A model generated the notes under the pieces. That model was not told the DNA's origin and ran no database searches. It saw only the letters and a list, made by a program, of their open reading frames with translations. 64,000 bases of DNA from Patescibacteria group bacterium (GTDB lineage: Bacteria > Patescibacteriota > Patescibacteriia > UM-FILTER-42-10): assembly GCA_041666485.1 (NCBI GenBank), contig JBAYGW010000003.1, forward strand, positions 16,415-80,414. Reading direction: 5' to 3'. Position numbers and translations under genes: made by a program. Position 1 is the stretch's first letter, and every line of letters begins with the position of its first letter. Shown here piece after piece: positions 6,671-40,711 of this stretch.

Positions 6671-8161
6671 ATGATTGTTATTATGAAAAGACAATCCGGA
6701 ATATTATTACACATCACATCACTGCCCAGTCCGTATGGCATTGGTGATTTGGGAGAAGAAGCATTTAGATTTATTGATTTCTTAAGCAAGTCCGGACAGA
6801 GTATTTGGCAAATTCTTCCATTAACCATACCGGACTCTATCGGTTCACCATACGCGTCTTCATCTGCGTTTGCCGGAAACTGGCTACTAATTAGTCCTGA
6901 TGAATTATTAAAAGCCGGATTGCTGCACAAAAAGTCACTTCCCAAAACAAAGCGAGTCACAGCGATCAAATATTCAAAAGTATTCCAAGAGCGACGAAAA
7001 CTCGTTGAAAAATCATATGAGTATTTCCGCAAACATGCTTCACGTGAACAGAGTAACAGCTTTAATCATTTTATCCAATATCATTCAAAATGGCTCAACG
7101 ATTTCGGGCTGTTTATGGCGCTTAAAGATCACTTCAAGGGTGCGCGATGGTTTAATTGGCCTGAGGATATTGCCAACAGAGAAGAACAAGCCATCAAATA
7201 CTGGCAAAAAAAACTTGATCGCCAAATAAAAGTATATCAATACGGACAATGGATATTTTTTTCTCAGTATGCGAAAATTAAAAAATACGCGAATAAAAAA
7301 GGTATCCGCATTTTTGGCGATATTCCATTCTTTATTATTCACGACAGTGTAAATGTTTGGGTTGATCGGGATTTGTTTTTGCTGGACGATAAATACCAAC
7401 CCCTGGCCAAATCGGGTGTGCCACCGGATTATTTCAGCAAACGTGGACAGTTGTGGGGTGACCCGCAGTACAACTGGGAAAAAATGAAGAAAAATAATTT
7501 CCGTTGGTTTATCAGAAGAATAAAAAAAGCGGAAAACTTTTATGATGATGTTCGTTTAGACCATTTTAGAGGCTATTCAGCAGTATGGCATGTTGATCCA
7601 AAATCCAAAACATCTAAAAATGGCAAATGGGTCCCTGTACCCGGAATTGAAATCTTCAGAGAAGTAAAAAGCAAATTCAAAAATCTTTCTATCATTGCGG
7701 AAGATCTTGGATATATAACTCACGATGTAGTTGAATTGAAAAGGCATTATAAATTTCCGGGTATGCGCGTAATGCAGTTTGGTTTTAGTGGAAAACAGAA
7801 TAATTTTCATCTACCCACGAATTTTTCAACCGATTGCGTCGCTTATACCGGCACTCATGATAACGACACAACCTATGGCTGGATTACGAAATCCGGTAAA
7901 ACGTCGCAAAAGAAATTTGCGCTAAAATATGCGAAAACTGACAAAAAGCATTTTGCCTGGAAGCTTATTGAAATAGGTATGCGCTCAAGAGCCTGTTGGT
8001 TCGTCTTCCCTATTCAGGACGCTCTAAATCTCGGATCAGAGGCCCGCATGAACAAACCGTCAACCAAAAAGAAAAACTGGCAATGGCGTATGAAAAAAAA
8101 CGCATTATCGGACGAATTGGCAATTAAGATAAACAATCTTACCAGATCTGCCAGAAGATAA
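6671..8161 (+). CDS. malQ: 4-alpha-glucanotransferase (amylomaltase, GH77)
   Basis: SGILLHITSLPSPYGIGDLG signature; length ~496 aa. Confidence 0.9.
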   Translation: MIVIMKRQSGILLHITSLPSPYGIGDLGEEAFRFIDFLSKSGQSIWQILPLTIPDSIGSPYASSSAFAGNWLLISPDELLKAGLLHKKSLPKTKRVTAIKYSKVFQERRKLVEKSYEYFRKHASREQSNSFNHFIQYHSKWLNDFGLFMALKDHFKGARWFNWPEDIANREEQAIKYWQKKLDRQIKVYQYGQWIFFSQYAKIKKYANKKGIRIFGDIPFFIIHDSVNVWVDRDLFLLDDKYQPLAKSGVPPDYFSKRGQLWGDPQYNWEKMKKNNFRWFIRRIKKAENFYDDVRLDHFRGYSAVWHVDPKSKTSKNGKWVPVPGIEIFREVKSKFKNLSIIAEDLGYITHDVVELKRHYKFPGMRVMQFGFSGKQNNFHLPTNFSTDCVAYTGTHDNDTTYGWITKSGKTSQKKFALKYAKTDKKHFAWKLIEIGMRSRACWFVFPIQDALNLGSEARMNKPSTKKKNWQWRMKKNALSDELAIKINNLTRSARR

Positions 8162-8321
8162 TAATTCTAAAAACGTTCCGGCTTGAAATAAGCGCCGGGG
8201 CGTTTTTGATTATTCCAGAATCAGATTTCCGACCATGCCCATTTGCCGGTGATTTTGTATACCGCAATAATATTCAAAAATTCCGGTTTTATCCGCTATA
8301 AACTCCACTTAATATTAATAA

Positions 8322-8516
8322 TTAGCCGACCTTTTCCCATGTGGCATCATCGGCAACTTCATCAATGTCTACTTTTTTCTGGGGAATCAGGCACGAAACA
8401 CATTCGGGAAATTTTTCGCCTTTTTCCAATTTTGACTTATAGCCGCACGGCATACATAAATATTCTCCCGTCTCCGGAGCTTTATCACCGGCGTAATAGT
8501 ACTTTTTAATAGGCAT
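8322..8516 (-). CDS. small zinc-ribbon protein
   Basis: CxxC…CxxC in 64 aa; no spurious-frame alternative with better features. Confidence 0.35.
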   Translation of the reverse strand: MPIKKYYYAGDKAPETGEYLCMPCGYKSKLEKGEKFPECVSCLIPQKKVDIDEVADDATWEKVG

Positions 8517-8531
8517 ACCTCCTCCTAATTG

Positions 8532-9098
8532 TTAAGAAGTAATATTTTCTCTGCCCCATTTAAGGGTTTTTGTCATCCAGATTAATTCTGTTAAAAAAGT
8601 ATCAATTCTTACATCGTATGATTCATCTAAAACGTTACCATCATCGTCAAAAAGTGTATCAACCTTTGAGAAGTTCAAGTCAGTCTTAATCATTGATAAT
8701 TGCAGGGCCTTCATAACAGATGCCAAACTTTCAACTGCCCTTGCCCCGCCAAAACCACCGTCTGAAACACTGCATAAGCCCACCGATTTATGCCGGTATT
8801 CCGGTAACAGCATATCCAGGGCCATTTTTAAACTACCCGGGAAACTGTGATTATACTCGGGTGATACAATAATCAAACCGTCCGCTTTTTCTACTAATTC
8901 TTTAAAATCAGAATTTTTTTTACCCAGACCGCGCCCTTCATTACCCGCAAAATTTAATTTTTTTACATCAATGATTTGCGTTACAATCCCCGGTTTCTCC
9001 CTGACTCTTTTTTCCAAATATTTCGCGACTTTTTCACTTTCGCGTCCTTCTCTGGTTGTACCAAGAATAATCGGCAAATATAGAGCATCTTCTGACAT
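8532..9098 (-). CDS. NAD(P)H-dependent FMN reductase family protein
   Basis: LIIVSPEYNHSFPGSLKMALD flavodoxin-like reductase motif. Confidence 0.7.
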   Translation of the reverse strand: MSEDALYLPIILGTTREGRESEKVAKYLEKRVREKPGIVTQIIDVKKLNFAGNEGRGLGKKNSDFKELVEKADGLIIVSPEYNHSFPGSLKMALDMLLPEYRHKSVGLCSVSDGGFGGARAVESLASVMKALQLSMIKTDLNFSKVDTLFDDDGNVLDESYDVRIDTFLTELIWMTKTLKWGRENITS

Positions 9099-9115
9099 AT
9101 AATTATAATTAATTA

Positions 9116-9814
9116 TTAAATATATTGTTGTGGATCAATCCAATTATTCAGTTCTGCTTCTGTCTGGACATATCCTTTGATATTAATTTCAGTTCCTTTA
9201 TGTATCCCGAAATGCAGATGCTTTCTTTCCCCGTCTGTTTCCGCGCTTTTGTCCGCACCCAGTAACCCTATTATATCCCCTTTTTTGATATTTGATCCAA
9301 CTTCAAATTTTACACTAGCTATCATTAAATGACCGTAAATTACAGTAACTCTCTGACCATTCAAATCACATTCCTGGACAATCACTCCCCCATAACCGCT
9401 TGCGGTAGTTTTCATTCTAAGCGATCCGGTACAAAAAGACTTAACCTCCACATCACTGTTTAGTTCGTCAGCAAATACCTCAAAGTCAGCTCCGGTATGA
9501 TATCCGGAAAATCTCTCCGGCTGTACCGGCGAATTAGTCTTCGTTATTTTAATACCGAATGGTTTTTTTATAATTCTTTCTTTTGGTTGATCCAAAGGAC
9601 TCTGATAACCCTCATTACTTACCTGATTATTTAAATTTTGGTTTAAATCGGCATTTGCAATGTTTGTAATTTCGGAATTTACCAATACACTATTATTTAA
9701 AATTGTACTGTTACCAATGTTCTGGTTTTTCTTAATCTGTAAAAAAACAAACACACCAAAAAATATAAACATTATCAGCAAACCATAGAGAACCCTTTTG
9801 AATCCTTTACCCAT
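9116..9814 (-). CDS. M23 family metallopeptidase (LytM-like), membrane-anchored
   Basis: N-terminal TM; HTGADF…HLHFGIH zinc ligand motifs. Confidence 0.7.
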   Translation of the reverse strand: MGKGFKRVLYGLLIMFIFFGVFVFLQIKKNQNIGNSTILNNSVLVNSEITNIANADLNQNLNNQVSNEGYQSPLDQPKERIIKKPFGIKITKTNSPVQPERFSGYHTGADFEVFADELNSDVEVKSFCTGSLRMKTTASGYGGVIVQECDLNGQRVTVIYGHLMIASVKFEVGSNIKKGDIIGLLGADKSAETDGERKHLHFGIHKGTEINIKGYVQTEAELNNWIDPQQYI

Positions 9815-10307: not shown

Positions 10308-10439
10308 TTGCTCAAGTGTCTTAATGATATAGCAATTTGTTACCGCCTGTCAAGTCGGGTCACAACTCCTCATAAAGCCAATCTTGACAATAACGTACTT
10401 TTGTATTACTTTCTTTGTATGTTGATCTTTGAAACAACG

Positions 10440-10660
10440 ATGTAGGTGGGAGGACCGCCGTACCAAAAAGCAAGCAGTAATGCTACCCGCTGGGTGACAT
10501 TGACTGACGGGATTCGTCTCGTCCGTGGGCAGATGTTGCCCTCTGGGATGCTAAAGTGCGCGTCCTCCCACCCCACTTTCTTCTACAAATTGCTTTGTGC
10601 GGACGCTTAAGTCCGTTTGTGATAGTCACCCCACAACCCGATCCTACAGGGAGGTACGCC
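10440..10660 (+). other. GC-rich highly structured non-coding segment (candidate leader/riboswitch-like RNA) upstream of GC-rich ORF
   Basis: 11-13 bp outer stem GGTGGGAGGAC…GTCCTCCCACC enclosing several short hairpins incl. AGCA-GUAA-UGCU (GNRA loop). Confidence 0.3.
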
Positions 10661-10760
10661 AAATGTACTCGTGGAGTTACGCACGCCACGGGTTCGGTTG
10701 ACCTGCGATCTTCTCCGTCTGAGTAGTCAATGCCCACGACTCAAAATGAGGAGATCTCGC

Positions 10761-11126
10761 ATGTGCGACAAGACCCAATGGAACGCGGGGCACGTCCTCG
10801 TCGTCCAGACCGTGTTCCCGACCGACAGCGAATCCCCCGGCGGTTTCTCGCGCAGCGTCATGTTGTGCACCTGTGGGAGCTGCCTGAGCTCCAACAACCC
10901 GATGACGCCCGCAGGGCCCCTGCACAGCTACCTGAAACGGTGCTTTGAGCAGGACGCTGCTGATGCGGTGGCGGGGGGCCTTGAGCCGCCCGTCAACCTC
11001 CTGAGCATGCCGAAGCTTGACCCGCGCACCGGCGCCGAGAAGCCGACCAAGAAGCAGGCAGCCATGCTGATCAAGCAGATCGGTCCGGACGCCTTCGCTT
11101 CCGACATCGTCGCGGCCTACGCCTAG
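10761..11126 (+). CDS. hypothetical Cys-containing protein in GC-rich island
   Basis: AGGAG RBS 7 nt upstream of ATG; strong GC3 bias; followed by clean terminator. Confidence 0.45.
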   Translation: MCDKTQWNAGHVLVVQTVFPTDSESPGGFSRSVMLCTCGSCLSSNNPMTPAGPLHSYLKRCFEQDAADAVAGGLEPPVNLLSMPKLDPRTGAEKPTKKQAAMLIKQIGPDAFASDIVAAYA

Positions 11127-11158
11127 CGTAGGAGAAGAAGTACATCGTTGAAGGACAT

Positions 11159-11192
11159 CGGGCGAATCCACTGGATTCGCCCATTTTTTTAT
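11159..11192 (+). terminator. rho-independent terminator
   Basis: GGGCGAATCCA-C-TGGATTCGCCC followed by TTTTTTT. Confidence 0.75.
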
Positions 11193-11276
11193 TATGAATA
11201 TTGACAGAAGAAGTGGAATACAATACCATTGTTAACGCCCGCTGATTGTAAGACATCCTTCATGGAGGAGGTGGAC

Positions 11277-11573
11277 ATGTCCCAAAGTCGGCTGGTGATG
11301 TTCTTAATGCTCTTTCTCGGACTGACTCTCTCTCCCCTGTTTCTTGTCGTTGCGGCGGTTATGTTCCTTGCTCCCTCGGAGCCGAAGCTCATCCCCCGGG
11401 ATGATGAAGGGAGACGTTGCTGTCCCGTCTGCCACTCCAGACACTATCTCATCTTCCCGACTCGGCAGAAGAGCTACTTCGGCCATTCCTGGATTTCAGC
11501 ATTTTGCAGAAACCAAATGGAATACCGCTACCAGGACTGCACAATGAGCTGGAAAGAATCCGGGGACGGCTAA
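11277..11573 (+). CDS. hypothetical membrane-anchored Cys-rich small protein
   Basis: GGAGGAGG RBS; N-terminal TM helix then CCPVCH…C…C. Confidence 0.4.
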   Translation: MSQSRLVMFLMLFLGLTLSPLFLVVAAVMFLAPSEPKLIPRDDEGRRCCPVCHSRHYLIFPTRQKSYFGHSWISAFCRNQMEYRYQDCTMSWKESGDG

Positions 11574-11623
11574 ACCGCGTTGATGTTCTATCAGCGCTTT
11601 TTTTATATATTTATTTGACGTTA

Positions 11624-11959
11624 CTATCTGAAGATTTTAGACAGAAACCAGTTTACAATAGCCAGTACAATACCAAACAGCAATGCCCACCAAAAGCTTG
11701 CTATGGAAAATCCCGGAACAATTAACGCCATCAGCATAACCAATAATGCGTTAATCACCAGCGTAAACAAGCCAAGCGTCAGAATATTGATCGGCAGAGT
11801 AAAAATTACTAAAACAGGTTTGATAAATATATTAATCAGACCCAATACCAACGCCCCGACAAAAGCGACAAAAAAACCATCAACCGCTACGCCCGGTAGC
11901 AGATAGGCTGTGATCAGGATTGCGACCGTTGAAATTAGCCATTTAATAAGGATTTTCAT
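11624..11959 (-). CDS. DUF360 / holin-family-4-like small membrane protein
   Basis: 111 aa, 3-4 TM, LPGVAVDGFFVAFVGALVLGLIN pattern. Confidence 0.5.
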   Translation of the reverse strand: MKILIKWLISTVAILITAYLLPGVAVDGFFVAFVGALVLGLINIFIKPVLVIFTLPINILTLGLFTLVINALLVMLMALIVPGFSIASFWWALLFGIVLAIVNWFLSKIFR

Positions 11960-12156
11960 ATTGTTTTATTTAATGATTATGAAATCTTAGCTCTCTCTCC
12001 ATCAACCCAAAATAGTTGTTCATTATTAACAAAAGTAGGTATAATTAATGTACAAATATATTTTAGCACAATTCGCATAAAATACTCTATATTGCTGAAA
12101 TACGACATATATTCGTGTTGAAACGGGTTAAGTGAAATTCTAAATCTATTTTACAT

Positions 12157-13206
12157 ATGACAAACCATTACGAACAACAATTACAATTTGCTGCCCGTCG
12201 TGAGCAAGAGTCACTATTTACTGACGAGAATTGGATGGTACGCGTCAACAACGAGCTCCATAGTACGTACTTACCACTAGATAAGGATAAAGAAACACTA
12301 AGACCAGAATATCATGCTAAATTACTGGAAGATGCAGAGGCGTATTACCTGAACATTGGTGACGATTTCAATACATTTCGTCTACGATTGAAAAGAGGAA
12401 ATTTACGGGAAGCTGAACAACTAGCGCAAGTATTTTTATCTAAAACAGAAGAACCTAATTTTTTCGCCCATTACACTTCACACCCAGAGGCAATGGACGA
12501 TGCAAACATTCTTGAATTAAAAAAAACATACGTTTTGAGTGATTTAGCGAGATATAAGAAAGATGAAGAGTTACAAAAACAAGCTGCTGCAAGATTCATT
12601 ACTTACGCGGAAAATCAATCGCAACGTGATGAACTATCTGGCTACGAGGCATCAGCTCTCGGATTCTGGCAGGCACGAAGTCTTGTTACAGAAAACAAGC
12701 GAGCTGATATTTCAAATAATTGCATTGCCCAGTTTCGGAAAGCTGCTGAAGATAGAGCTAAAGTCGGGGATCGCTGGTGGGAAAGCATTGCACTGCGCCA
12801 AATAGGCAAAATCTCACCAGATCCAGCGGATAAGCAGGCAGCCTTACAAAGGTCAGAGGAACTGATTACGGAATATACGCAAATGGGCGATTACAAAAAA
12901 GCAGCCCTCTGGGCTCGCGATGTAAATGATCTCAATCCTTCAACAGAAAATGCTCAAAGAATGGAAGATTTGTGGAATGAAAACATAAGGAGAATGCAGG
13001 AAAGTGGTAATACGCGAGACATAGCTAAATCGCTCTGGTCTTTGTTCAAAAGGGTAAGAAAATACGATAGTGAAAAAGCTGAAGATTGCAGATTAAAGAC
13101 AATAGAGTGGTATGAGAAACTCTTATCCGAGGAAAAGGCTAAAAAGCAACCGAGAGAAGACAGAATACGCGAGTGCTATTGGGTATTCAGTGAGCTCATT
13201 CAATAA
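12157..13206 (+). CDS. hypothetical protein, predicted all-alpha
   Basis: long ORF, coding-like composition, no recognised motif. Confidence 0.5.
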   Translation: MTNHYEQQLQFAARREQESLFTDENWMVRVNNELHSTYLPLDKDKETLRPEYHAKLLEDAEAYYLNIGDDFNTFRLRLKRGNLREAEQLAQVFLSKTEEPNFFAHYTSHPEAMDDANILELKKTYVLSDLARYKKDEELQKQAAARFITYAENQSQRDELSGYEASALGFWQARSLVTENKRADISNNCIAQFRKAAEDRAKVGDRWWESIALRQIGKISPDPADKQAALQRSEELITEYTQMGDYKKAALWARDVNDLNPSTENAQRMEDLWNENIRRMQESGNTRDIAKSLWSLFKRVRKYDSEKAEDCRLKTIEWYEKLLSEEKAKKQPREDRIRECYWVFSELIQ

Positions 13207-13290
13207 ATTCAGAACTTCACACAACACCGCGTATGCGGAGAGTTTAAATCATATAGAAACAATCGGAAAATAATAAATATAGTATAATTT

Positions 13291-13779
13291 ATGACTAAAA
13301 AAATAGTTGGAATAATGGGTCCCGGTAGTAAAGCCACCATGAAGGACCTAAAAAACGCCTACAATATCGGAAAATTTTGTGCTGAAAATAACTGGGTTAC
13401 TTTAACAGGTGGCAGAAACAAAGGAGTAATGAATGAAGCATTAAAAGGCGCGAAAAAGGGTAACGGCTTAACTATCGGAATATTGCCAACTGATGAAAAA
13501 AATAAATTTTCTAAATTCCTAGATATTGCAATCTGCACAAATATGAGATCTGGAAGAAATTATATAAATGTTTTGTCTAGTGATATAGTAGTAGCCTGTG
13601 GTATAGACCCTGGCACATCTTCAGAGATCAGTTTGGCAATAAAACCAAAAAAGAATGTAATTTTAGTAGGACTTAATAAAGAGGCAAAAGACTTTTATAA
13701 AAAACTAGCCCCTAAACAAGTTTATTGTGTAAAAAATTATATAGAAGCAAATAAAATATTAGCTGAAAAACTTGGGTGA
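13291..13779 (+). CDS. LOG/TIGR00725-family Rossmann-fold nucleotide-binding protein (putative nucleotide N-glycosidase)
   Basis: TGGRNKGVMNEALKGA and DPGTSSEISLA approximate LOG GGGxxGxM / PGGxGTxxE motifs. Confidence 0.6.
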   Translation: MTKKIVGIMGPGSKATMKDLKNAYNIGKFCAENNWVTLTGGRNKGVMNEALKGAKKGNGLTIGILPTDEKNKFSKFLDIAICTNMRSGRNYINVLSSDIVVACGIDPGTSSEISLAIKPKKNVILVGLNKEAKDFYKKLAPKQVYCVKNYIEANKILAEKLG

Positions 13780-15514: not shown

Positions 15515-15895
15515 CTACGGACAGCTGCCGATCCACGGGGTCGGACTGCCCGTGTAGTCGAATGCCAGGCAACCGAGATGCGTCGTACCACCACCGAGGG
15601 TCTTCGACGGCCAGGTGTTGGACTGAATGTTGATGTCATTCACCCATGCCTTGCCGATGTAACCGGAACCAGACGGAAGTCCCGAGACAGAGATCAGTCG
15701 TTGCCCGAGCGGGAGCGTGACCATCGTGTTCTGCCAACGGACTGTGCTCCCCTGGATGATCTGCACCGTGTACGTGAATGATGATGGACCTCTCACCGTC
15801 ACCTGAGCAGTGCCGGCATGGGCGACGCTAACAGATCCGATGGACACCATCACGACGAGGACAAACAGCAGGATGACACTCTTGAAGATCTTCAT
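15515..15895 (-). CDS. small secreted protein (signal peptide, two Cys), GC-rich
   Basis: AGGTGG RBS; MKIF…VAHAG signal peptide; GC-rich codon usage. Confidence 0.5.
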   Translation of the reverse strand: MKIFKSVILLFVLVVMVSIGSVSVAHAGTAQVTVRGPSSFTYTVQIIQGSTVRWQNTMVTLPLGQRLISVSGLPSGSGYIGKAWVNDINIQSNTWPSKTLGGGTTHLGCLAFDYTGSPTPWIGSCP

Positions 15896-19236: not shown

Positions 19237-19586
19237 TATGACAGTCCTAATTCATCTTTAGCACTTTCCTTTACCATATCCGGTGTCCAGGGCGGATCCC
19301 AGACTAGGTACACCTTTGCACTTTTTATGCCCGGGAGCTTTTCTAGAACTTCCTGCGCCTGTCTGGTAATCGGACCTGCAAGCGGGCACCCCGGGAAAGT
19401 CAGTGTCATTTTTAGGGTCACAGCATTATTGCGTACCGATAAGCTATATATCAGACCGAGATCAACAATATTGATTCCTAATTCCGGATCCATTACTTCC
19501 CTTAATGCATTCTCAGCTGATTTCTTTGTAATTTTGTCCTGAAGCTTTATTTGTGGCTTTTTTTTATTCATAACGCAGAGCGTCAA
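19236..19586 (-). CDS. DUF59/MIP18 family Fe-S assembly protein (SufT-like)
   Basis: DPELGINIVDLGLIYSL motif. Confidence 0.7.
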   Translation of the reverse strand: MTLCVMNKKKPQIKLQDKITKKSAENALREVMDPELGINIVDLGLIYSLSVRNNAVTLKMTLTFPGCPLAGPITRQAQEVLEKLPGIKSAKVYLVWDPPWTPDMVKESAKDELGLS

Positions 19587-20802
19587 TCGGATTTTTTCTT
19601 GCGGCTTTTGATGCCGGCATTATTCCAAATACTATTCCAACAATGACAGATACGCCAAATGCTAATGCTAGTGAAAAAACAGTTATTAGCGCCGGAATGC
19701 CGTAGTATTTGGTAATCAATTGAGTCACTACGTACGCCAGACCAACTCCTATGAATCCGCCCAGTAAACTCAAGACGCTTGATTCAATTAAGAATTGGAA
19801 TAAAATATTTGAGCCGGACGCTCCCAACGCTTTTCTGATTCCAATTTCTCTTGTTCTCTCTGTTACAGACACCAGCATGATGTTCATAATTCCAATTCCA
19901 CCAACAATTAATGATATTGCGGCTATTCCGACGATTGCATTTGTTAATATTCCAAAAAAATCATCAAAGAGATCCAGCATATCGTCAGTTGTTAATACAG
20001 AAAAATCTTTAATTCCCTTATGCCGCTCCAACATTAAACTGTTGACTGTTTCAACACCAGGAGCGACCGCTTCGGTTGAATTGAAATTAATCATTATTCT
20101 AAAAATATTCAGTGCCTCAAGGGTGTCCTCAGCTGTACTGATTGGAATTGTGTATGCTTCATGCAGGTTCGGCATTTGACTCGTCATCATGTTACTATCG
20201 TCACCTCCGCCGCTTAGGAATCCTACATCAGTTTCCACAACTCCGATTACCTCAAATTCCTCTTCTAACACTTTTACTTTCTGCCCGACTGCTGAACCTT
20301 CAAAGTCACGTTTCGCAGCATCACGGCCAACCAGAATTACTTTCGCCTTGTTTTCAATATCTTCGGCAGAAATATACCTTCCTTCAATGGCTTTGATATC
20401 TACTATTTTGTTCATCTGATCATTTGTTGCTAAAACCATCGGAAGATACGGATTGCCTACTGGAGGGGTCACAGCACTTGGCACAATCATGAGCGGCGCA
20501 ACTGCTTTCACATTTTCCACCTCGCTGATTGCATCCACATCCCCCATTGTTAATGCCGACATACTCATAAATGAAGCTGGATTCATTTCGCCATTAGTGA
20601 TATCTCCCGCAATCACAGCCGCTAAATTTCCGCCTAACGAATCAACTGCACCGGTAAATTCTTGTTTTACCCCGTCTCCAATACTGACTAATGTTATTAC
20701 GGAAAACACTCCAATAATTATGCCAAGCATAGTCAATACGGACCGCATACGATTTGCCCAGATTGCCGATAATGCAAAGCGGATACTTTCTAAAATGTTC
20801 AT
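19564..20802 (-). CDS. ABC transporter permease, MacB/FtsX type
   Basis: N-terminal TM, large periplasmic domain, C-terminal FtsX 3-TM bundle. Confidence 0.8.
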   Translation of the reverse strand: MNILESIRFALSAIWANRMRSVLTMLGIIIGVFSVITLVSIGDGVKQEFTGAVDSLGGNLAAVIAGDITNGEMNPASFMSMSALTMGDVDAISEVENVKAVAPLMIVPSAVTPPVGNPYLPMVLATNDQMNKIVDIKAIEGRYISAEDIENKAKVILVGRDAAKRDFEGSAVGQKVKVLEEEFEVIGVVETDVGFLSGGGDDSNMMTSQMPNLHEAYTIPISTAEDTLEALNIFRIMINFNSTEAVAPGVETVNSLMLERHKGIKDFSVLTTDDMLDLFDDFFGILTNAIVGIAAISLIVGGIGIMNIMLVSVTERTREIGIRKALGASGSNILFQFLIESSVLSLLGGFIGVGLAYVVTQLITKYYGIPALITVFSLALAFGVSVIVGIVFGIMPASKAARKNPIDALRYE

Positions 20803-22839: not shown

Positions 22840-22880
22840 ATAAAAAACCTGCCCAACACGTGAGTTGTGTTTAGACAGGG
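22840..22880 (-). terminator. putative terminator after purH
   Basis: imperfect GC stem CCUGUCUAAACAC/GUGUUGGGCAGG followed by U-run on minus strand. Confidence 0.4.
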
Positions 22881-22907: not shown

Positions 22908-24497
22908 CTAGTGCCAGAACATCCGGCGATCGGTAAAGAGCATCGCGATGCCCAGTTTGTCCGCGGACCTGATTGAATCCTGGTCGCGAATTGAACCGCC
23001 CTGCTGGACGATCGTCTTGACGCCGAACGTGTCCGCCAGGCGCACGCAGTCGTCAAACGGGAAGAAGCTGTCGGACACCAGCACAGCATGGTGCAGATCC
23101 ATATTCTGCGCCTCCATGTTGTTCATGGCCTGCTCCAGAGCAAGCCGTGCCGACTTGATCCGGCTGGTCTGGCCGTTGCCGATGCCGATCGTCTGCCCGT
23201 TCCAGACCACGATGACCGAGTTGGACTTGACGTGCTTTGACACATTGCAGCCGAAACTGATATCCGACCAGTAGCGGTCCTTGACACCGAGCTTGGTGAC
23301 GCACCGGAACGACCTGCAGTCAAACAGCTCGGTGTCCATCAGCTGGACCACCATGCCGCCGGTCACCGGCTTGAAGTTCAGCGTGCCGAACGGCATGCTG
23401 CAGGAAAGCTCCCCACCCAGTTTGAACAGCGGGGTCTCTGCCCTGGCGCGCTTCTTGGTGATGTGTTCCATCGCCTCCGGCGAAAAATCCAGCGCGACGA
23501 TCGCGTCCACCTTCTGCACGCAGATGGTTTCAGCGACTTCCTCCGTCACCTGGAAGTTGAGTACCACCACCCCGCCGAAAGCCGATTCCGGATCGCACGC
23601 CAGTGCGTTCTGGAAAGCCTTCAGCGGACTGAAGCTGTCCATCGCCACTCCGCACGGCGTACCATGCTTGATGATCGCGACTGCGAATTCCGGGGACAGG
23701 TCGCGGACCGTCTCAATGCCGGCATTGATATCCAGCACAGTGGTGGCCGAGAGCGGCTTGCCCCAGATCTGCTTGGCGTTTGCCGCGGTGTAGCAGTTCA
23801 GACCCGGCAGTTCGTAGAACGCACCCGGCTGATGCGGATTCTCACCGTAGCGCAGATCACACTTCTTCTGCAGACGCTGAACCATCCGATCCGGGAAGCT
23901 GGGGAACTCAAGGCGTTCAGCCAGCCAGTCGGAGATCGTGGCGTCATACCACGCAGTGTGAAGAAACGCCTTGTAAGCCAGTTGCAGACGTTCCAGCGCG
24001 TTGAACCCGACATCTTCCGAAAGACACCGAATCACAAAGCCGTACTGCTCTGGTGAAGTGACCACCAGCACATGGCTGTGATTCTTCGCGGCCGCGCGGA
24101 TCAGTGCCACGCCGCCGATATCAATCTGCTCAATCGCGTCCCGAAATGCCACGGTCCGATCAGCCACCGTCTCTTCAAACGGATACAGGTTGACCACGAC
24201 CATGTCAAACGGGTAGATGCTGTGATCAAACAGCTCCTGCATGTGCGCGTCGCTGTCCTGATCCGCCAGGATCCCGCCGTGGATCTTCGGATGCAGAGTC
24301 TTCACCCTGCCACCCAGAATTTCCGGGAAACCGGTCACCTCCTCTACCGTTCGCACGGGAATTCCGGCTTCCACCAGGTGTCTGGACGTTCCGCCGGAAG
24401 ATACAATCTCCCAGCCATGTTCAAACAGCACGGTGGCAAGCTCAACAATGCCGCGCTTGTCGGACACGCTGATCAGAGCGCGCTGATTTGCTCGCAT
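22908..24497 (-). CDS. purH: bifunctional AICAR transformylase / IMP cyclohydrolase
   Basis: ALISVSDKRGIVELA (MGS domain), GGTSRHLVEAGIPV, KTLHPKIHGGIL; AAAGGAG RBS at chosen start; gene conspicuously GC-rich. Confidence 0.9.
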   Translation of the reverse strand: MRANQRALISVSDKRGIVELATVLFEHGWEIVSSGGTSRHLVEAGIPVRTVEEVTGFPEILGGRVKTLHPKIHGGILADQDSDAHMQELFDHSIYPFDMVVVNLYPFEETVADRTVAFRDAIEQIDIGGVALIRAAAKNHSHVLVVTSPEQYGFVIRCLSEDVGFNALERLQLAYKAFLHTAWYDATISDWLAERLEFPSFPDRMVQRLQKKCDLRYGENPHQPGAFYELPGLNCYTAANAKQIWGKPLSATTVLDINAGIETVRDLSPEFAVAIIKHGTPCGVAMDSFSPLKAFQNALACDPESAFGGVVVLNFQVTEEVAETICVQKVDAIVALDFSPEAMEHITKKRARAETPLFKLGGELSCSMPFGTLNFKPVTGGMVVQLMDTELFDCRSFRCVTKLGVKDRYWSDISFGCNVSKHVKSNSVIVVWNGQTIGIGNGQTSRIKSARLALEQAMNNMEAQNMDLHHAVLVSDSFFPFDDCVRLADTFGVKTIVQQGGSIRDQDSIRSADKLGIAMLFTDRRMFWH

Positions 24498-24589
24498 TTC
24501 TGCTCCTTTCGTGGCAAACCGTGAAGCTTTCACCGCAAACAACCGTTTGGGAAACGGTTTTTTAACTTATCACTCCGACTGACGCAAGT

Positions 24590-24618
24590 CAAATCAAAAA
24601 CGGGTGACTTTCACCCGC
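24590..24618 (-). terminator. rho-independent terminator after doxX-like gene
   Basis: GCGGGTGA…TCACCCG stem followed by TTTTTGATTT on minus strand. Confidence 0.55.
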
Positions 24619-24641
24619 ATTTAATTATGAATGAATATGTC

Positions 24642-25145
24642 CTATTTTGACCGAATCCATTTATCTAGACTGAACCGATTTTTATGGCTTAAAGTGACCA
24701 GGCCAGCCATAACCATAAACAGCAAATCTCTGACATATGTGCTCCAATCCAGAGCGCTTTCGGAATTGAAACACCCGCAGGCAATCAATCCGCCACGGTA
24801 CAGGGTAATTAGGATGGCGATCATAAAACTAAAAAGCATCAGATTAATAATCGTCACGCTGAATCTCGTAAACAATCCTATAACAACCGCAAACCCGAAT
24901 ATCAGTTCAACCCAGGGCAACGCGTAGCCATACCATGTTTCCAGCGGATCGGGCAGAACATTATACTGCCGGACGGTTGCCATGAATTCATCCGGCGCCG
25001 GAATTTTTGACATAGCCGCCATTATAAATACCACGCCCAGTAATATCCGTAGGATCATAGTTGCATAATCATTCACAAATATTTTATTCATTCCAGCTAC
25101 CACTTTTTGATACATTGACTTTTTTTGTAAGTTTGTTTCTTCCAT
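24642..25145 (-). CDS. DoxX/MauE-family membrane protein
   Basis: 4 TM; CGCF motif. Confidence 0.55.
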   Translation of the reverse strand: MEETNLQKKSMYQKVVAGMNKIFVNDYATMILRILLGVVFIMAAMSKIPAPDEFMATVRQYNVLPDPLETWYGYALPWVELIFGFAVVIGLFTRFSVTIINLMLFSFMIAILITLYRGGLIACGCFNSESALDWSTYVRDLLFMVMAGLVTLSHKNRFSLDKWIRSK

Positions 25146-34912: not shown

Positions 34913-36415
34913 TTAGGTAATTGTAAAAATATTGATTTTTTCAATCGCTTTCTTTGCCAGTTCAATTCTTTCCCTGCGATTCGCGTAAAAAGTGAACAGT
35001 TTACTACCCTTTTTAACTTCCTGTCCAACCCTTTTGTGGAGGTAAATGCCGGCCAATTTTTCTGAAGGCGCACCTAGTGTTCTCGCAATTTCGTCAATTG
35101 CTTTATTATCTACTGCGGTTATTTTACCTGACTTTGCGGAAAGTACACGGTAATACTCACCGCCTAAGACCACTGCGTCGGAATCAATTGTAGAATTACC
35201 ACCCTGTTCCTTGATCACCACCTGCATTTTTTTCCACGCCTTACCTGATACCAGAATTTCTTCCGCAACTGATTTTCCCTTACCGCGCGCCACCTGCCCC
35301 GATATTTCCAGAAGTTTTCCCGCCAAAACCAGTGCTTTATCTTCTAAATCTTTCGGCCTGTTACTTTTTTGCTGCAATACCCGGAGAACATCGCGTGATT
35401 CCAAGGCCGGTCCAACCCCTCTGCCGACCGGTTCATTGGCAAAAATTTTTTCAACATGTATTTTAATCCCAAAACGCTTGCCAAGATACATAAACTTTTT
35501 TTCAATCTCATTCGCGGTCTTCATATCCGGAATTTTTGAGGTGATTCCGACCGGCATATCAATCACCAGATACTTGATACCCATGGCAACTTTTTTCGCC
35601 ATAATACTTACCACCATTTTATCAAACGGTTCCAAGGAGAGTGGTTTTGTCACCTGAATAATCAAATCATCCGCCGGAGCAATATTTAAACCACCGCCCC
35701 AGATCATACATACTTTGTTTTTCATCACCATTTGTTTGATTCTGGTCATGGAAAATCCGACCGGAGCCAATACTTCCATAGTATCCGCCGTACCCGACGG
35801 TGAAGTGATCGCCCGGGAGGAGGTTTTTGGAATATATAAACCAAAGGCTGCAACAATCGGAACAACAATCATAGTTGTCCTATTGCCGGCCAAACCGCCG
35901 ACGGAATGTTTATCAACTACAATTTTATTTCCGGAAAATCTCAACTGCTCGCCGGTTTCCGCAATTGATTTTGTAAGATAATACAGCTCCAGTGGAGTAT
36001 AAGGCCTTGCAAAACTAGACGCGACAAAATATGATGTTTCCACCGGTCCGAGTCTGCGGCTGACAATATCTGCTATGATTGAATGAATTTCCTCATAACT
36101 TAAAACACCGCCCTTAATTTTCTTATTAATTGCTTTTACTGATTCCGGACGTTCAACGATTGAAACCTCAATGATTTGATCTTTCTTCATCGGGTACTTC
36201 GCCCAGATCTCTTCAAAAAAACCGATCTCCCCCGGCTTTATTTCATTTTCCGCCAGGTTTACAGTAGCAAATATTCTTTTACGGTTATGCCAGGACAAAC
36301 CGATATGGTCATTAGCATGAATACCAAAATTGAGGGCTTCTTTTTCATTTAAAAGCACCTTCGGCATCTCGCCGGTTTCAATATCAATTTTTTTTGCCCT
36401 TAAATAAAATGCCAT
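34913..36415 (-). CDS. AMP phosphorylase (thymidine-phosphorylase family, archaeal DeoA-type)
   Basis: Near full-length similarity to Thermococcus AMPpase incl. HSVGGLAGNRTTMIVVPIVAA, PKTSSRAITSPSGTADTMEV. Confidence 0.85.
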   Translation of the reverse strand: MAFYLRAKKIDIETGEMPKVLLNEKEALNFGIHANDHIGLSWHNRKRIFATVNLAENEIKPGEIGFFEEIWAKYPMKKDQIIEVSIVERPESVKAINKKIKGGVLSYEEIHSIIADIVSRRLGPVETSYFVASSFARPYTPLELYYLTKSIAETGEQLRFSGNKIVVDKHSVGGLAGNRTTMIVVPIVAAFGLYIPKTSSRAITSPSGTADTMEVLAPVGFSMTRIKQMVMKNKVCMIWGGGLNIAPADDLIIQVTKPLSLEPFDKMVVSIMAKKVAMGIKYLVIDMPVGITSKIPDMKTANEIEKKFMYLGKRFGIKIHVEKIFANEPVGRGVGPALESRDVLRVLQQKSNRPKDLEDKALVLAGKLLEISGQVARGKGKSVAEEILVSGKAWKKMQVVIKEQGGNSTIDSDAVVLGGEYYRVLSAKSGKITAVDNKAIDEIARTLGAPSEKLAGIYLHKRVGQEVKKGSKLFTFYANRRERIELAKKAIEKINIFTIT

Positions 36416-36480
36416 GATTAGTAATTCGTAATTAGCAATTGGTAATTAGTAATTAGCAACGTGTAATTCGCTGTATAATG
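36416..36480 (-). promoter_or_regulatory. tandem AATTAC-repeat array in leader of AMP phosphorylase gene
   Basis: cgAATTACacgttgctAATTACtAATTACcaattgctAATTACgAATTACtaatcATG (read toward gene); near-identical array before guaB. Confidence 0.35.
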
Positions 36481-36516
36481 CCGTATGTACAGGTCTGATA
36501 TTAAGATGTAAAAAAA

Positions 36517-37800
36517 TTACTTATCCCCATCCTTCCAATGTCTGAGCGCAACGGCTAACTCTCCGTGGTCTTTGGCATACTCATCCAGATCAATCCCCGC
36601 AAGCGTCGCGTCTAATGCCTGTTTAACGGCTGTCGCTCCGGCAAATGTTCCTTCCGGATGACCATGGATACCCCCGCCAAAATTCAGAATTACATCTTTG
36701 CCGAATATTTTATAAAGCGAAGGTATTAAATTGGGATACAACCCGCCTGATGCGATCGGGAATGTTGATTTAATATTAAACCACTTACTGCGCAGAAAAT
36801 CATCTATTTCAACTACATCACTTTTTCCACCCTCCATTTTCCCCACAACCGTGCCGGTGTGCAGCTGATCAATACCTGCCAGACGCGCCAATTTTGACAG
36901 CACTAGCATACTCATTCCATGTTTTTGGTTCTTAGTGAACATAGAATGCCCAGCTCTGTGACCGTGAATTATAAGACCTAAATCCCGTTTGCGTAACATT
37001 TGCACATTATCAAGTCCTACGGAAACCATGTCAATCATTACCACTTCACCGCCGAGGCTTTTGACCAGCTGCGCTCTTTTGATCATTTCATCCGGTTGTG
37101 CTGTTACATTAAACACGCACAATTTTTTGCAGCCTGTTTCTTTTTCCGCTTTATCCCTCATTTTAAGAGTAAGCCGGACTCGCTGATCAAATCGGCTGAA
37201 AGAAAGGTCGGTTAAATTTTCATCATCTTTGACCAGATCAATTCCACCGATAAAGACCTGGTAAGACAGTGTGGCATGCTGCAGAGCGGACAAGCCCAGC
37301 TTTGGTTTCAGAATTGATCCCAGTATGGGCCGGTCATAAATTCCCATAATGCGCCTGATCCCTTTTATGCCGAAACGCGGGCCCTGAAAACTTTCAACAT
37401 ATTCTTTCGGAAAGTCTACATCCACTAATCTGAGATTCCTTATGATCTTCATACTAAAAACATTACCCGCCACACCGGATAAAAATTGCGGGATGCTCCC
37501 CTTTTCAAAAAGCGCCAAGGGATAGGCAACTTTGAATGTATGGGCTTTTTTATCAATATCATATGCTTTCGCGCTCAGCTTCGTGAATGTTGCTTTGGAT
37601 AATGTGGCAAGATCCGTCCAGGTTCCAATAGAAGATTCCGCCGCCACTCCGCCCGCCGCATCGTTAAAATCAACATTGGTATCCATATAGAATGAAGCGA
37701 CAAGTTCTGTTTTCTTCGGCTGATAGCTTTTTTTTACAAATTTTTGGTAAAATTTATTCATATTATAGATTCTTGAAAATCCATGGATAATGCTTTTCAA
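36517..37800 (-). CDS. rbcL: ribulose-1,5-bisphosphate carboxylase large subunit, form II/III
   Basis: KPKLG carbamylation site, GGIDLVKDDEN, IHGHRAGHSMF, GGGIHGHP; alternative start at 37761. Confidence 0.88.
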   Translation of the reverse strand: MKSIIHGFSRIYNMNKFYQKFVKKSYQPKKTELVASFYMDTNVDFNDAAGGVAAESSIGTWTDLATLSKATFTKLSAKAYDIDKKAHTFKVAYPLALFEKGSIPQFLSGVAGNVFSMKIIRNLRLVDVDFPKEYVESFQGPRFGIKGIRRIMGIYDRPILGSILKPKLGLSALQHATLSYQVFIGGIDLVKDDENLTDLSFSRFDQRVRLTLKMRDKAEKETGCKKLCVFNVTAQPDEMIKRAQLVKSLGGEVVMIDMVSVGLDNVQMLRKRDLGLIIHGHRAGHSMFTKNQKHGMSMLVLSKLARLAGIDQLHTGTVVGKMEGGKSDVVEIDDFLRSKWFNIKSTFPIASGGLYPNLIPSLYKIFGKDVILNFGGGIHGHPEGTFAGATAVKQALDATLAGIDLDEYAKDHGELAVALRHWKDGDK

Positions 37801-38719
37801 CTAAATAAGCAACATCACGTGGCTTAATAATACCAAATTCACAAATTATTCCTTTGATGAATTTAGATGGAATGCGGTCAAAAGCGAAATTGATTATTTT
37901 TAATCCTTTCGGACCGTTCGGCCAGATTTCTTTGCGATCCCGCAATTCAATGCCAACATATTTGCTGATAAATGTTTCCGGATCGGTTTTTAAAAGTGAA
38001 GCGGCGACATAAACCGGAATTTTTTCGTGGTTAGCAACCTGGGCGATTCCGTAGCTACCGACTTTGTTGATCACTGAGCCGCCGGATGTAACCGAGTCTG
38101 CACCCAAAAAAGCAATATCCACCATCACTTCCCGGCCACTGGTTCTGCTGATCAGAAAAGCGGCAGCTGAATCAGCCACCATTGTGACGTCAATCTTTCG
38201 CTTTAATAGATTCTTAGCTGTTATTCGCCCCTGGAAAAGCGGGCGGGTTTCTGTACAAAAAACATGCGGCATCTTTGAATGTTTATTAGCCTCAGTAATA
38301 ATATGCTCCACAGTTGAAGAATGGCAGTGCGTGAATACTTTCATATCTTGCTTAATCAGTTTTGCGCCGGCTACGGCAATTTTTTGATCATGATATTTCA
38401 GCAAAACTAAAAAAAGATGGCAAGCTTTTTTTAGCAACTTCGCCAACTCAGGCACGGATAAACCTTCTTTATTATTCTCTAAATAATGTAAAACGAATTG
38501 GACTGAATTACGGGACAGCGGTTCGGTCGGCCTTGCTTCCGCCAAGGCTTTGCCACTTTTACGAATAGCAGAAAGAAACTGGCTTTTATTTTTTTTTAGC
38601 AATTGATTACTTTCCAACTGCAACGCGTCCAAAATTACTTTGGTTATCTGCGTTGCACCCTGTATTTCTAAAGATGCTATTTTTGTTACTGTTTTTTGTA
38701 CTGCGCTATTCATAAACAC
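37763..38719 (-). CDS. ribose-1,5-bisphosphate isomerase (eIF-2B alpha/beta/delta family)
   Basis: e2b2-family core …VTMVADSAAAFL…FLGADSVTSGGSVINKVGSYG. Confidence 0.72.
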   Translation of the reverse strand: MFMNSAVQKTVTKIASLEIQGATQITKVILDALQLESNQLLKKNKSQFLSAIRKSGKALAEARPTEPLSRNSVQFVLHYLENNKEGLSVPELAKLLKKACHLFLVLLKYHDQKIAVAGAKLIKQDMKVFTHCHSSTVEHIITEANKHSKMPHVFCTETRPLFQGRITAKNLLKRKIDVTMVADSAAAFLISRTSGREVMVDIAFLGADSVTSGGSVINKVGSYGIAQVANHEKIPVYVAASLLKTDPETFISKYVGIELRDRKEIWPNGPKGLKIINFAFDRIPSKFIKGIICEFGIIKPRDVAYLVEKHYPWIFKNL

Positions 38720-38734
38720 AGTATACCATTTATA

Positions 38735-40558
38735 TCATTCCCATTCAATCGTCCCTGGCGGCTTGTTGGTGAAATCAAAAACAATCAAATCTATTTGTTT
38801 TATTCTTTTTAAGCGTCCGACAACCTGGTCAATAAAAGATCGGGACAACGGGAAATACTTGACCGTCATTGCTTCCTCCGATTGCACGGGGCGCAAAATT
38901 ACTGTGTAGCCGCCCGCAATGGAATATGGGGCCAGGATTACGGGAAATTGCCAGATTTTAGAATCCAGTCGGGCTTTTTTCATTTCAGACTGTACTATGT
39001 CGTCAATATTCTGCAGTAGAGCCACGTTTTTTTTCGTCAGCAGAAGTTTAATATTTTTTCCTCCGCTAATATCTTTTTTCCTGCTAAAAATCACCCAGCA
39101 CACCCGATTTACATTTTGAATCTGATTTGCCACGAGCGGACCGAGCTTTTGCATTTGAATAGTATTCATTTCTCCGGAGAAAACCGCGGGATGGGCGTAA
39201 GTCCGTTCATCGCCCTGAACGCCCACACTTCTGACCGGTAGTACCCAGCCTTTAATATCTGATTTGTTCTCATAATTGAACTGCGAGATTATTATATCCA
39301 AATCGGCATTTTCTTTCTTTACATTTACATGCACCTTATTTCCCCGGGAACAAATTATACGGATTGCCAACCCCGGACCGGGAAATGGATGACGATTGAT
39401 AATTTCTCCAGGCAAGCCGATCTGCTTGCCGAGCTGCCGTACTTCGTCTTTGTACAAGTCTTTCAAAGGCTCAATGACCAACCCGCGTTTTATTAATTCC
39501 AAAACTTCTTTTACCCGATTATGGTGTGTTTTTATTTTATCGGCGTGCTTCGTCCCGCCCGATTCAATTGTATCCGGATAAATAGTCCCCTGCGCCAGAA
39601 TCCATTCCTTTGGATTCAGTTTGAATTTCTTCATCGCAATTCTTTGAACATCCAGATACGTCCTGCCGATAATCTCGCGTTTGCGTTCCGGACTGATAAT
39701 ACCTTTTAACCTCTTATAGAATAGTACGGAAGCATCCATTACTTCCAGATTGGTAAACCCTAGTTTATTGAAACGTTTTTTTATTTCCTCTGATTCATTT
39801 TTTCTCATGAACCCCAGATCAATATGCAGACCAAACACCTTTTCTTTGCCCAAGATCCGATTCAGTAACCCGAAACATACGGCAGAATCAACTCCGCCGG
39901 AAACCAGCAAAAATACCTTGCGACTTCCTACTTTCCTAACTATCTCTTTTTCAATATCAGTTAAGTAATGTTTAATATCCCATTCCTTTTTAGCGCCGCA
40001 GATACTGAAAACAAAGTTATTAATTAATTCCATTCCACGTTCTGTATGTGATACTTCGGGGTGAAACTGGACTCCGTATATTTTCATTATGCTGTTTCCC
40101 ATCGCTGCTACCGGGCAATCAGCAGTCTTTGCCATGACTTTAAATCCCTTCGGCACATTTAATACAAGATCACCATGACTCATCCAAACCTGTTCGTTTG
40201 CACCAAATTTCCTGAACAGCTTGCCGGGTTCAATTACTGACAGGTTGGCAAAACCATATTCTCTCACATCACCCCTGACTACTTTTCCGCCCATTAGATA
40301 GGTGATCAGTTGGTGACCATAGCAAACACCTAGGATTGGTACGCCGCTTTTCAGTATTCTCCGGTCAAATTTTATTTTCCCGTCATAAACGCTGTTTGGT
40401 CCGCCGGACAGGATTATTCCCCAGGACGACCTTAATTCTTCAAGTGGCGTTTCGGGATTGTAAATATTAGCTAAAACACCAAGTTGCCGGATTCTGCGTG
40501 CAATCAGGTGGGTATATTGTGAACCAAAATCCAGAATTGTTATGTGTTTTTGTTTCAT
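38735..40558 (-). CDS. guaA: GMP synthase (glutamine-hydrolysing)
   Basis: GATase ILDFGSQYTHLIARRIR, PP-loop SGGVDSAV, C-terminal …IEWE; 607 aa (longer than usual). Confidence 0.9.
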   Translation of the reverse strand: MKQKHITILDFGSQYTHLIARRIRQLGVLANIYNPETPLEELRSSWGIILSGGPNSVYDGKIKFDRRILKSGVPILGVCYGHQLITYLMGGKVVRGDVREYGFANLSVIEPGKLFRKFGANEQVWMSHGDLVLNVPKGFKVMAKTADCPVAAMGNSIMKIYGVQFHPEVSHTERGMELINNFVFSICGAKKEWDIKHYLTDIEKEIVRKVGSRKVFLLVSGGVDSAVCFGLLNRILGKEKVFGLHIDLGFMRKNESEEIKKRFNKLGFTNLEVMDASVLFYKRLKGIISPERKREIIGRTYLDVQRIAMKKFKLNPKEWILAQGTIYPDTIESGGTKHADKIKTHHNRVKEVLELIKRGLVIEPLKDLYKDEVRQLGKQIGLPGEIINRHPFPGPGLAIRIICSRGNKVHVNVKKENADLDIIISQFNYENKSDIKGWVLPVRSVGVQGDERTYAHPAVFSGEMNTIQMQKLGPLVANQIQNVNRVCWVIFSRKKDISGGKNIKLLLTKKNVALLQNIDDIVQSEMKKARLDSKIWQFPVILAPYSIAGGYTVILRPVQSEEAMTVKYFPLSRSFIDQVVGRLKRIKQIDLIVFDFTNKPPGTIEWE

Positions 40559-40644
40559 ACTTGTCTTTATTGTAAAATATACTTACAATTAAAACAACAT
40601 TTTAACCCTAATCCCTTGTCCCTACTACCTAACTTCGCATATTA

Positions 40645-40705: not shown

Positions 40706-40711
40706 AAAAAT

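Follow-up and report, generated by a model that had tools for sequence, protein, structure and literature searches.

Does a gene whose base composition breaks sharply with that of its genome record a recent arrival, or can such a break be kept over long evolutionary times? The question is raised by purH, the gene for a bifunctional purine biosynthesis enzyme, in a stretch of 64,000 nucleotides (hereafter the window) from contig JBAYGW010000003.1 of a Patescibacteria group bacterium, which belongs to the Candidate Phyla Radiation (CPR). Atypical guanine-plus-cytosine (GC) content is routinely taken as a sign of recent horizontal gene transfer (HGT), and an earlier note on this DNA had proposed a likely horizontal acquisition of purH on this ground, but for purH the inference of recent transfer fails, as the anomaly is family-wide, old and near steady state. 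Our favoured reading, to which we assign a probability of roughly 55%, is that purH is an anciently acquired, functional gene for an enzyme that converts 5-aminoimidazole-4-carboxamide ribonucleotide (ZMP, or AICAR) to inosine monophosphate (IMP), and that its GC-rich coding sequence (CDS) is actively maintained, likeliest by selection at the synonymous or mRNA level.

Results

Composition of purH and its surroundings

A single minus-strand open reading frame (ORF), with its ATG start at 24497 and its stop at 22908, fills the GC-rich region:

22908-24497, minus strand: purH CDS, 529 aa, bifunctional AICAR formyltransferase/IMP cyclohydrolase; GC 0.59, GC at third codon positions (GC3) 0.76

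The mean GC of the window is 40%; the interval from ~22.85 to 24.55 kb reaches 0.57-0.63 and drops back within ~100 nt on each side, to flanks of 0.36-0.45. The GC3 of purH compares with a window median of 0.39 (robust z = 5.9, 74 ORFs) and, averaged over eight orthologs, the step in composition lies no more than 30-60 nt away from the start and stop codons, with spacer, promoter and 5' untranslated region (UTR) being AT-rich in all eight. The description of purH as a sharply GC-rich gene in AT-rich surroundings is thus borne out, and the tetranucleotide check that had been proposed for it also marks the gene as atypical: its composition-normalised signature correlates with that of the host at r = 0.41, compared to 0.70 ± 0.10 for host fragments. 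The codon and amino acid usage of purH resembles that of a high-GC organism.

As a control we measured gene minus flank GC at 79 distant purH genes among the matches listed, which come from diverse genomes with a flank GC of 0.29-0.73 (25 of them below 0.45). At these loci the difference was +0.014 ± 0.020 with a maximum of 0.058, showing that the PurH protein itself does not force a high GC content. The difference is +0.195 in the window (z ~9 relative to the controls) and +0.19 to +0.21 at CPR purH loci (z ~9-10), with +0.09 at the Kerfeldbacteria locus. The many ORFs overlapping purH, which had been considered a hallmark of its high GC, do exist, but their lengths do not exceed what its codon usage leads one to expect, as alternative-frame ORFs are not longer than those in synonymous-codon shuffles (8/8: the window plus seven orthologs). 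The same shuffles ruled out a hidden overlapping or antisense gene that constrains the synonymous sites of purH.

Conservation of the locus among CPR genomes

The exact PurH protein is also encoded on contigs from ENA, JGI and one NCBI metagenome-assembled genome (MAG). Three relatives with 79-82% PurH identity lie on contigs of 0.28-1.18 Mb, each recovered identically from different samples and assemblers, and four further genomes, at 65%, 52%, 52% and 51% PurH identity, have purH at the same position. In all eight genomes the gene occupies a slot upstream of a run of PHP-family, 91-aa, ABC and FtsX genes and is GC-rich, with a GC3 of 0.60-0.81 versus 0.18-0.51 for its neighbours. Independent JGI, ENA, NCBI and Logan assemblies agree exactly at the junctions, which excludes the assembly chimera that the earlier note had wished to see checked. 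Contigs of the same genome from different samples were identical, and no polymorphism was found among them.

The nearest named relative of PurH is from Candidatus Kerfeldbacteria (PIY97201.1). In a neighbour-joining (NJ) tree of the best 122 database hits, the 11 CPR sequences group together in a clade that includes nothing else; all other hits share 44-48% identity and come from mixed taxa, and no donor lineage can be named. Among 5.8 billion proteins, all PurH sequences with >49% identity fall into this CPR clade. The PurH tree is largely congruent with those of the flanking genes, a result that largely refutes simple HGT as the cause of the present composition, with one exchange within the family: PurH of the relative L011 groups with the window's clade (100% bootstrap), whereas its CNNM and Maf (100%) and PHP (77%) genes group with the relatives L009 and L010. 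The tree of the FtsX-family gene (19564-20802, minus strand) conflicts with those of the other flanking genes, joining L010 and L011 at 100%, while FtsX of L009 is nearer to that of the window's clade (81% versus 71% identity); this conflict indicates that these CPR lineages have recombined in mosaic fashion in the region.

No mobility genes were found near purH, whose neighbours are DoxX-family and PHP-family genes, and the only tRNA gene in the window, for tRNA-Gln(CUG) (60139-60212), is not linked to it. A search for att-like flanking repeats around the purH island returned only chance-level repeats of 12-14 nt, and viral contigs held no close relatives of PurH or of the M29 aminopeptidase described below.

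Maintenance or decay of the GC-rich state

In the window's closest clade, five flanking genes have diverged at four-fold degenerate sites by p = 0.41-0.68, near saturation, and purH by 0.29-0.43. GC at these sites (GC4) of purH is 0.72-0.80 in this clade and 0.54-0.73 in deeper lineages. At the protein level PurH evolves faster than its neighbours, with ~52% identity between sub-clades versus 64-89%. When four-fold changes were polarised by parsimony on terminal branches, changes from G/C to A/T (S>W) amounted to 47/390 in purH versus 90/282 in the neighbours (p = 5e-10), such that S>W changes fix about threefold less often per site in purH than in its flanks. The per-site ratio of A/T-to-G/C (W>S) to S>W rates was 3.4 in purH versus 0.96 in the neighbours at four-fold sites and 0.82 versus 0.69 at codon positions 1 and 2, corresponding to a 3.5-fold shift at the former and only a ~1.2-fold shift at the latter.

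We also fitted a two-state non-stationary maximum likelihood (ML) model in which the root was optimised under each hypothesis. The equilibrium GC4 of the neighbours was 0.44, and the neighbours' tree and process, with any starting GC, were rejected for purH (2ΔlnL, twice the difference in log likelihood, = 103). Neutral amelioration was still rejected when the purH tree was uniformly scaled (2ΔlnL = 24.6, p = 7e-7). For purH itself the equilibrium GC4 was 0.76 in the stationary fit and up to 0.89, such that the synonymous sites of the gene follow a regime of their own, with an equilibrium of ~0.75-0.9. In the window's clade, purH lies close to a GC-rich steady state and shows no decay.

A second GC-rich gene at different loci

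The window holds three more sharp GC-rich islands besides purH (~10400-11580, 15515-15895 and 55796-56923), of which the last contains a peptidase gene:

55811-56923, plus strand: M29 aminopeptidase (PF02073, 137 bits); GC 0.63, GC3 0.84

In five Patescibacteria genomes M29 markedly exceeds its neighbours in GC, at different loci and against a background GC that ranges from 34% to 50%. The relatives, labelled Patescibacteria or Kerfeldbacteria, carry it at 8001-9113 (L012), 8001-9122 (L013), 8001-9140 (L014) and 8001-9161 (L098). Its GC3 is 0.84 versus a background of 0.33-0.45 in the window, 0.66 versus 0.33-0.58 in L013, 0.62 versus 0.42-0.54 in L014 and 0.60 versus 0.16-0.27 in the 34%-GC genome L098. 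Between the window and the syntenic L012 gene (88% identity), GC4 is 0.88 and 0.86 at a four-fold divergence of 0.31, while the neighbours have diverged by 0.38-0.67. The GC content of M29 is higher in the AT-rich clade than in relatives that are themselves richer in GC, which passive decay can hardly explain. In normalised tetranucleotide usage M29 resembles purH (r = 0.73) rather than its host (r = 0.24, compared to the above 0.70 ± 0.10 for host fragments), and both genes nearly drop the host's common codons TTA, TTG, ATA and CTA (near 0%) and encode lysine by AAG in 91-92% of cases versus 24% in host genes.

Predicted function and expression signals of purH

PurH scores 592 bits against NCBIfam NF002049 (cutoff 402) over residues 4-529 and 508 bits against the older TIGR00355 model, narrowly under that model's cutoff of 528. 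Its Pfam domains are PF02142 (MGS; residues 16-130, 77 bits) and PF01808 (AICARFT_IMPCHas; 136-456, 288 bits), and it aligns end-to-end to the structures 3ZZM (E = 4e-103), 4EHI and 9OU7. Alignment to 3ZZM and 9OU7 shows that the motifs GRVKTLHP, NLYPF, IDIGG, AAKNH, KHxxPCG, SDxFFPF and GGSxRD, which we take to lie at the active sites as in ATIC/PurH structures, are intact, and they are invariant across nine CPR sequences. Family membership and context suggest that PurH would convert ZMP via formyl-AICAR (FAICAR) to IMP.

Several candidate expression signals surround the gene:

24503-24509, minus strand: AAAGGAG, the ribosome-binding site, 5 nt upstream of the ATG, as seen in the sequence itself
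24541-24559, minus strand: hairpin AACCGTTT-CCC-AAACGGTT, followed by GTTGTTTG (U-rich tract), in the 5' UTR between the promoter-like motif and the ribosome-binding site
24564-24592, minus strand: promoter-like motif TTGACT - 17 nt - TAAGTT with a TG upstream, within AT-rich sequence, of predicted function
24600-24618, minus strand: intrinsic terminator (hairpin and T-run) that ends the upstream DoxX/MauE-family gene (24642-25145)
22842-22879, minus strand: imperfect hairpin followed by T6, 3' of the purH stop, a probable terminator as read from the sequence

The ribosome-binding site that had been ascribed to purH is indeed its own, and a purine-rich GGAG/GGGG is kept upstream of the orthologs. 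In the promoter-like motif, the columns TTTTTnATTnGA and TGnTAAnnT do not vary in any of the eight orthologs; a strict sigma-70 scan did not pick the motif up. The 5' UTR hairpin is kept in the four closest genomes and could be an attenuator or a protein-binding site. The proposal that GC-rich terminators lie on both sides of purH probably holds for the 3' side, but the upstream terminator, whose T-run is kept in all purH orthologs, belongs to the DoxX gene, with the further hairpin lying in the 5' UTR. There was no match to the ZTP riboswitch (RF01750) in the window at the gathering threshold nor in 24440-24700 at E <= 10, and no other Rfam riboswitch was found upstream of purH (24440-24700). 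Taken together, purH is probably a functional, single-gene transcription unit in the genome of a Kerfeldbacteria-related member of the Patescibacteria.

Nucleotide metabolism encoded in the window

The enzymes predicted to act on IMP are encoded elsewhere in the window by a divergent gene pair of host-like composition (GC3 0.44):

38735-40558, minus strand: guaA (GATase/GMP_synt_C in syntenic relatives), on the route from IMP to guanosine monophosphate (GMP)
40712-42187, plus strand: guaB (Pfam IMPDH, 516 bits), divergent from guaA

GuaB and GuaA would then convert IMP to GMP. Adjacent to guaA, at 34913-38719, lies a module for AMP phosphorylase, R15P isomerase (IF-2B family) and RuBisCO, whose GC3 of 0.38-0.43 is likewise host-like. 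The whole nucleotide cluster (34913-42187: salvage module, guaA and guaB) is syntenic in L009 and L010 and of host-like composition throughout. The window also has a purine/pyrimidine phosphoribosyltransferase-like gene and fmt. The statement that purH is the only de novo purine gene of the window therefore holds for the ten-step pathway to IMP, with guaB and guaA present besides. Because purH is the sole gene of this pathway in the window and IMP has a direct route to GMP, purH would appear to be a salvage add-on for the conversion of ZMP/AICAR to IMP where the de novo pathway is otherwise lacking.

The relatives differ in what surrounds purH and M29. At the Kerfeldbacteria locus L008, purH is followed by a GC-rich purM (11901-13331, 476 aa; TIGR00878, 300 bits). 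Another Kerfeldbacteria genome, L014, encodes a stand-alone IMP-cyclohydrolase domain of 200 aa (7226-7828) directly upstream of M29. Partial remnants of the purine pathway thus vary across the group.

Other GC-rich islands and outliers

The island beside the CNNM gene encodes a small secreted protein:

15515-15895, minus strand: 126-aa secreted protein; GC 0.58, GC3 0.73

This protein has no Pfam or NCBIfam match. In relatives the same CNNM-adjacent slot is taken by a different, conserved and GC-rich secreted protein of 405-443 aa (18709-19926 in L001, 17654-18871 in L003, 17995-19326 in L009 and 18022-19266 in L010), which has a signal peptide and a C-terminal ...QHWF, an ending like that of outer-membrane proteins and odd for CPR.

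The third island, here called island A, combines a structured leader with two small genes:

10400-11580, plus strand: island A, a structured leader (~10400-10745) followed by two small GC-rich ORFs
10761-11126 (approximate), plus strand: small ORF 1, a 121-aa Cys-containing protein (MCDKTQWN...CTCGSC...), with a terminator hairpin after it
11262-11573 (approximate), plus strand: small ORF 2, a 103-aa protein with a transmembrane helix and a CCPVCH-type Cys cluster, with a terminator hairpin after it

The leader of ~340 nt is GC-rich and conserved in three genomes (the window, L006 and L010). Its closing stem of 17 bp (GGUGGGAGGACCGC... / ...GCGCGUCCUCCCACC) is accompanied in L006 by a hairpin-sized insertion, one hairpin shows compensatory changes (only four pairs show double changes), and a 3' helix pairs GAUCUUCUC with the ribosome-binding site GAGGAGAUC. 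These features make the leader a candidate riboswitch-like regulatory RNA. Island A has no Rfam, Pfam or NCBIfam match, a metagenome scan for the leader returned only two already-known genomes and one chance coding match, and gene callers left the stretch of the two ORFs empty in relatives. When the GC islands were searched for a shared uptake-signal-like motif, no k-mer of at least 10 nt recurred.

Milder GC outliers (GC ~0.51-0.52, GC3 0.55) lie at 1504-1800 (minus strand) and 44812-45267, the second of which coincides with ORFs of both strands. In L013, an OPT-family oligopeptide transporter gene (731-2557) has a GC of 0.59 and a GC3 of 0.74 while its adjoining genes have a GC of 0.41-0.42, and may be another member of the set of genes that are kept GC-rich.

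Discussion

Selection on the coding sequence or the mRNA is favoured as the force that maintains the GC-richness of purH on three grounds: the bias does not extend beyond the CDS, it affects synonymous sites strongly and replacement sites only weakly, and it recurs in purH and M29 in genomes that differ in background GC. It could act on the CDS or mRNA for G/C-ending codons, through transcript stability or yield, or through codon-dependent control of translation. How the gene came to the lineage is a separate step of the same reading. CPR bacteria generally lack nucleotide biosynthesis (PMC7304191), and because of this, together with the isolated PurH clade, the high-GC-like codon and amino acid usage and the GC-rich purM neighbour, a foreign origin is plausible. 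It is the part of the acquisition claim that stands; the recent timing and the explanation of the present composition do not. The gene would have entered an ancestor of the CPR family long ago and, as the purM beside purH in L008 suggests, probably within a GC-rich fragment of a pur operon. Since its entry, purH has been passed down at a single locus behind a conserved, AT-rich promoter-like sequence, and related lineages have exchanged alleles of it at least once.

Several points weigh against this reading. The step of ancient HGT has no identifiable donor, and no functional reason is known why purH and M29, rather than highly expressed genes such as RuBisCO, should need GC-rich codons. The increase in W>S changes (25/61 in purH versus 123/400 in the neighbours) is not significant alone (p = 0.14), and the reduction in S>W changes fits a lower local rate of G/C-to-A/T mutation about as well as it fits selection. 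In addition, replacement and regulatory sites carry constraints of their own, and since protein-level selection filters replacement sites, the contrast between synonymous and replacement sites is suggestive and not decisive. The ML tests rest on only four close taxa and 189 four-fold sites, and entirely free branch lengths weaken them (2ΔlnL = 7.1, p ~0.008). Finally, the most AT-rich lineage, L010, shows a net loss of GC in purH (17 S>W versus 2 W>S changes).

The best-surviving alternative is a bias at the level of DNA, either GC-biased gene conversion (gBGC) through recurrent exchange of purH alleles or a self-reinforcing low rate of G/C-to-A/T mutation in GC-rich duplex, for example by less cytosine deamination. 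gBGC has been proposed for bacteria (PMC4450053). Recombination is real in this region, as seen from the conflict between PurH and its flanks in L011 and from the FtsX mosaic, purH has diverged less than its neighbours at four-fold sites, and strongly lowered S>W changes along with W>S changes that are not significantly raised are what reduced mutation predicts. However, a DNA-level process should hit all site classes and the adjacent non-coding DNA, whereas the GC excess ends at the ends of the CDS, leaving spacer, promoter and UTR AT-rich in 8/8 orthologs, and the ratio at replacement sites barely shifts (purifying selection there could mask a weak effect); selection therefore fits the pattern better. 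M29, moreover, retains its excess whatever its locus or background, and the GC3 excess of purH, +35-45 points, is reportedly much above the GC3 differences associated with recombination in bacteria. We thus regard a DNA-level bias as a serious but rather doubtful explanation.

An origin in a very GC-rich donor followed by ordinary, as yet unfinished, neutral amelioration is disfavoured and, in our estimate, improbable. Such a history would account for the isolated PurH clade, the GC-type codon and amino acid usage and the GC-rich purM of L008, as well as for the lower GC4 of purH in the divergent, AT-richer L010 (0.54-0.56) and L009 (0.61-0.63) versus 0.72-0.80 and for the S>W excess in L010. 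It is at odds with flanks that are near synonymous saturation even in the closest clade, with the rejection of the neutral model under the neighbours' tree, the scaled tree and free branches alike, with four-fold S>W changes in purH at one third of the neighbours' on the same branches, and with a GC3 of M29 that is 0.84 in the AT-rich clade versus 0.62-0.66 in GC-richer relatives.

Repeated re-import (xenologous replacement) from an unsampled GC-rich host, plasmid or phage, by which the composition of purH would be reset, is more improbable still. CPR bacteria live as episymbionts and take up DNA of foreign origin, and at least one purH allele was replaced within the family; yet all PurH sequences with >49% identity form one clade, all eight contexts examined are syntenic AT-rich CPR genomes, viral contigs lack close relatives, and promoter and UTR are conserved along with purH. 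Recent acquisition or an assembly chimera, to which the sharp step, the atypical tetranucleotides and the gene's own ribosome-binding site had pointed, is refuted by the comparative data, namely the same gene, locus and anomaly in eight genomes down to ~50% protein identity, identical sequence across independent samples and assemblers, and a locus without mobility genes, tRNA or flanking repeats.

If the GC-rich state is maintained by selection, a broader conjecture may be entertained, though only tentatively: AT-rich Patescibacteria might hold a defined subset of genes at 55-65% GC through very long spans of evolution (purH, M29, certain secreted proteins and small-ORF loci) via synonymous-site selection, as a heritable expression code that marks a functional class and is not a fossil of foreign origin. 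Such a code would act via mRNA stability or dependence on particular tRNAs. The searchable literature yielded no account of compositional islands of this type in CPR genomes. Irrespective of this conjecture, purH and its neighbours amount to a natural experiment within one genome on whether GC is maintained by selection, biased gene conversion or mutation, in which population size, lifestyle and replication machinery are held constant. HGT detectors that work on composition, and MAG-contamination filters, may mistakenly flag or discard genuine, long-resident CPR genes of this kind. The lone ZMP-to-IMP step of PurH, feeding GuaB and GuaA, would represent a conserved part of the nucleotide economy of this CPR family.

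Compared with known systems, purH shares some features with each of four and departs from all of them. With canonical bifunctional PurH, such as that of Mycobacterium tuberculosis (3ZZM), it has the full-length two-domain layout and the active-site motifs in common. It differs in being only 40-48% identical to any non-CPR PurH, in being accompanied in the window by no other gene of the ten-step IMP pathway, so that it presumably serves ZMP salvage, and in lying ~20 GC points above its own genome, whereas the 79 ordinary purH genes are within +1.4 ± 2 points of their flanks.

Under the Lawrence-Ochman amelioration model, acquired genes of atypical GC ameliorate to the composition of the host, and the usual idea that foreign genes fade in this way does not predict the kept GC-richness of purH. 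Like classical HGT islands, purH shows a sharp compositional break, atypical codon and tetranucleotide usage, an accessory metabolic function and an isolated phylogeny. Unlike them, it is a single CDS under a native-looking AT-rich promoter, without integrase, tRNA or repeats, that occupies one locus family-wide and has not drifted to the host composition despite saturated synonymous divergence of its flanks.

Bacterial genes with a GC3 elevated by recombination and gBGC (PMC4450053) are, like purH, GC3-high, recombining and G/C-favoured at synonymous sites; the excess in purH differs in its size of +35-45 GC3 points, its confinement to the CDS, its near absence at replacement sites and its recurrence in distant genomes and loci. 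The AMP phosphorylase, R15P isomerase and form II/III-like RuBisCO genes of CPR are laterally acquired salvage genes (PMC5113843, PMC6389311), and purH resembles them as an accessory nucleotide enzyme gene with a patchy distribution shaped by lateral transfer, but in the window they are host-like in composition and purH is not. As an enzyme, the PurH of the window is thus an ordinary new member of its family; in composition, its gene represents an atypical-GC island of an unusual kind.

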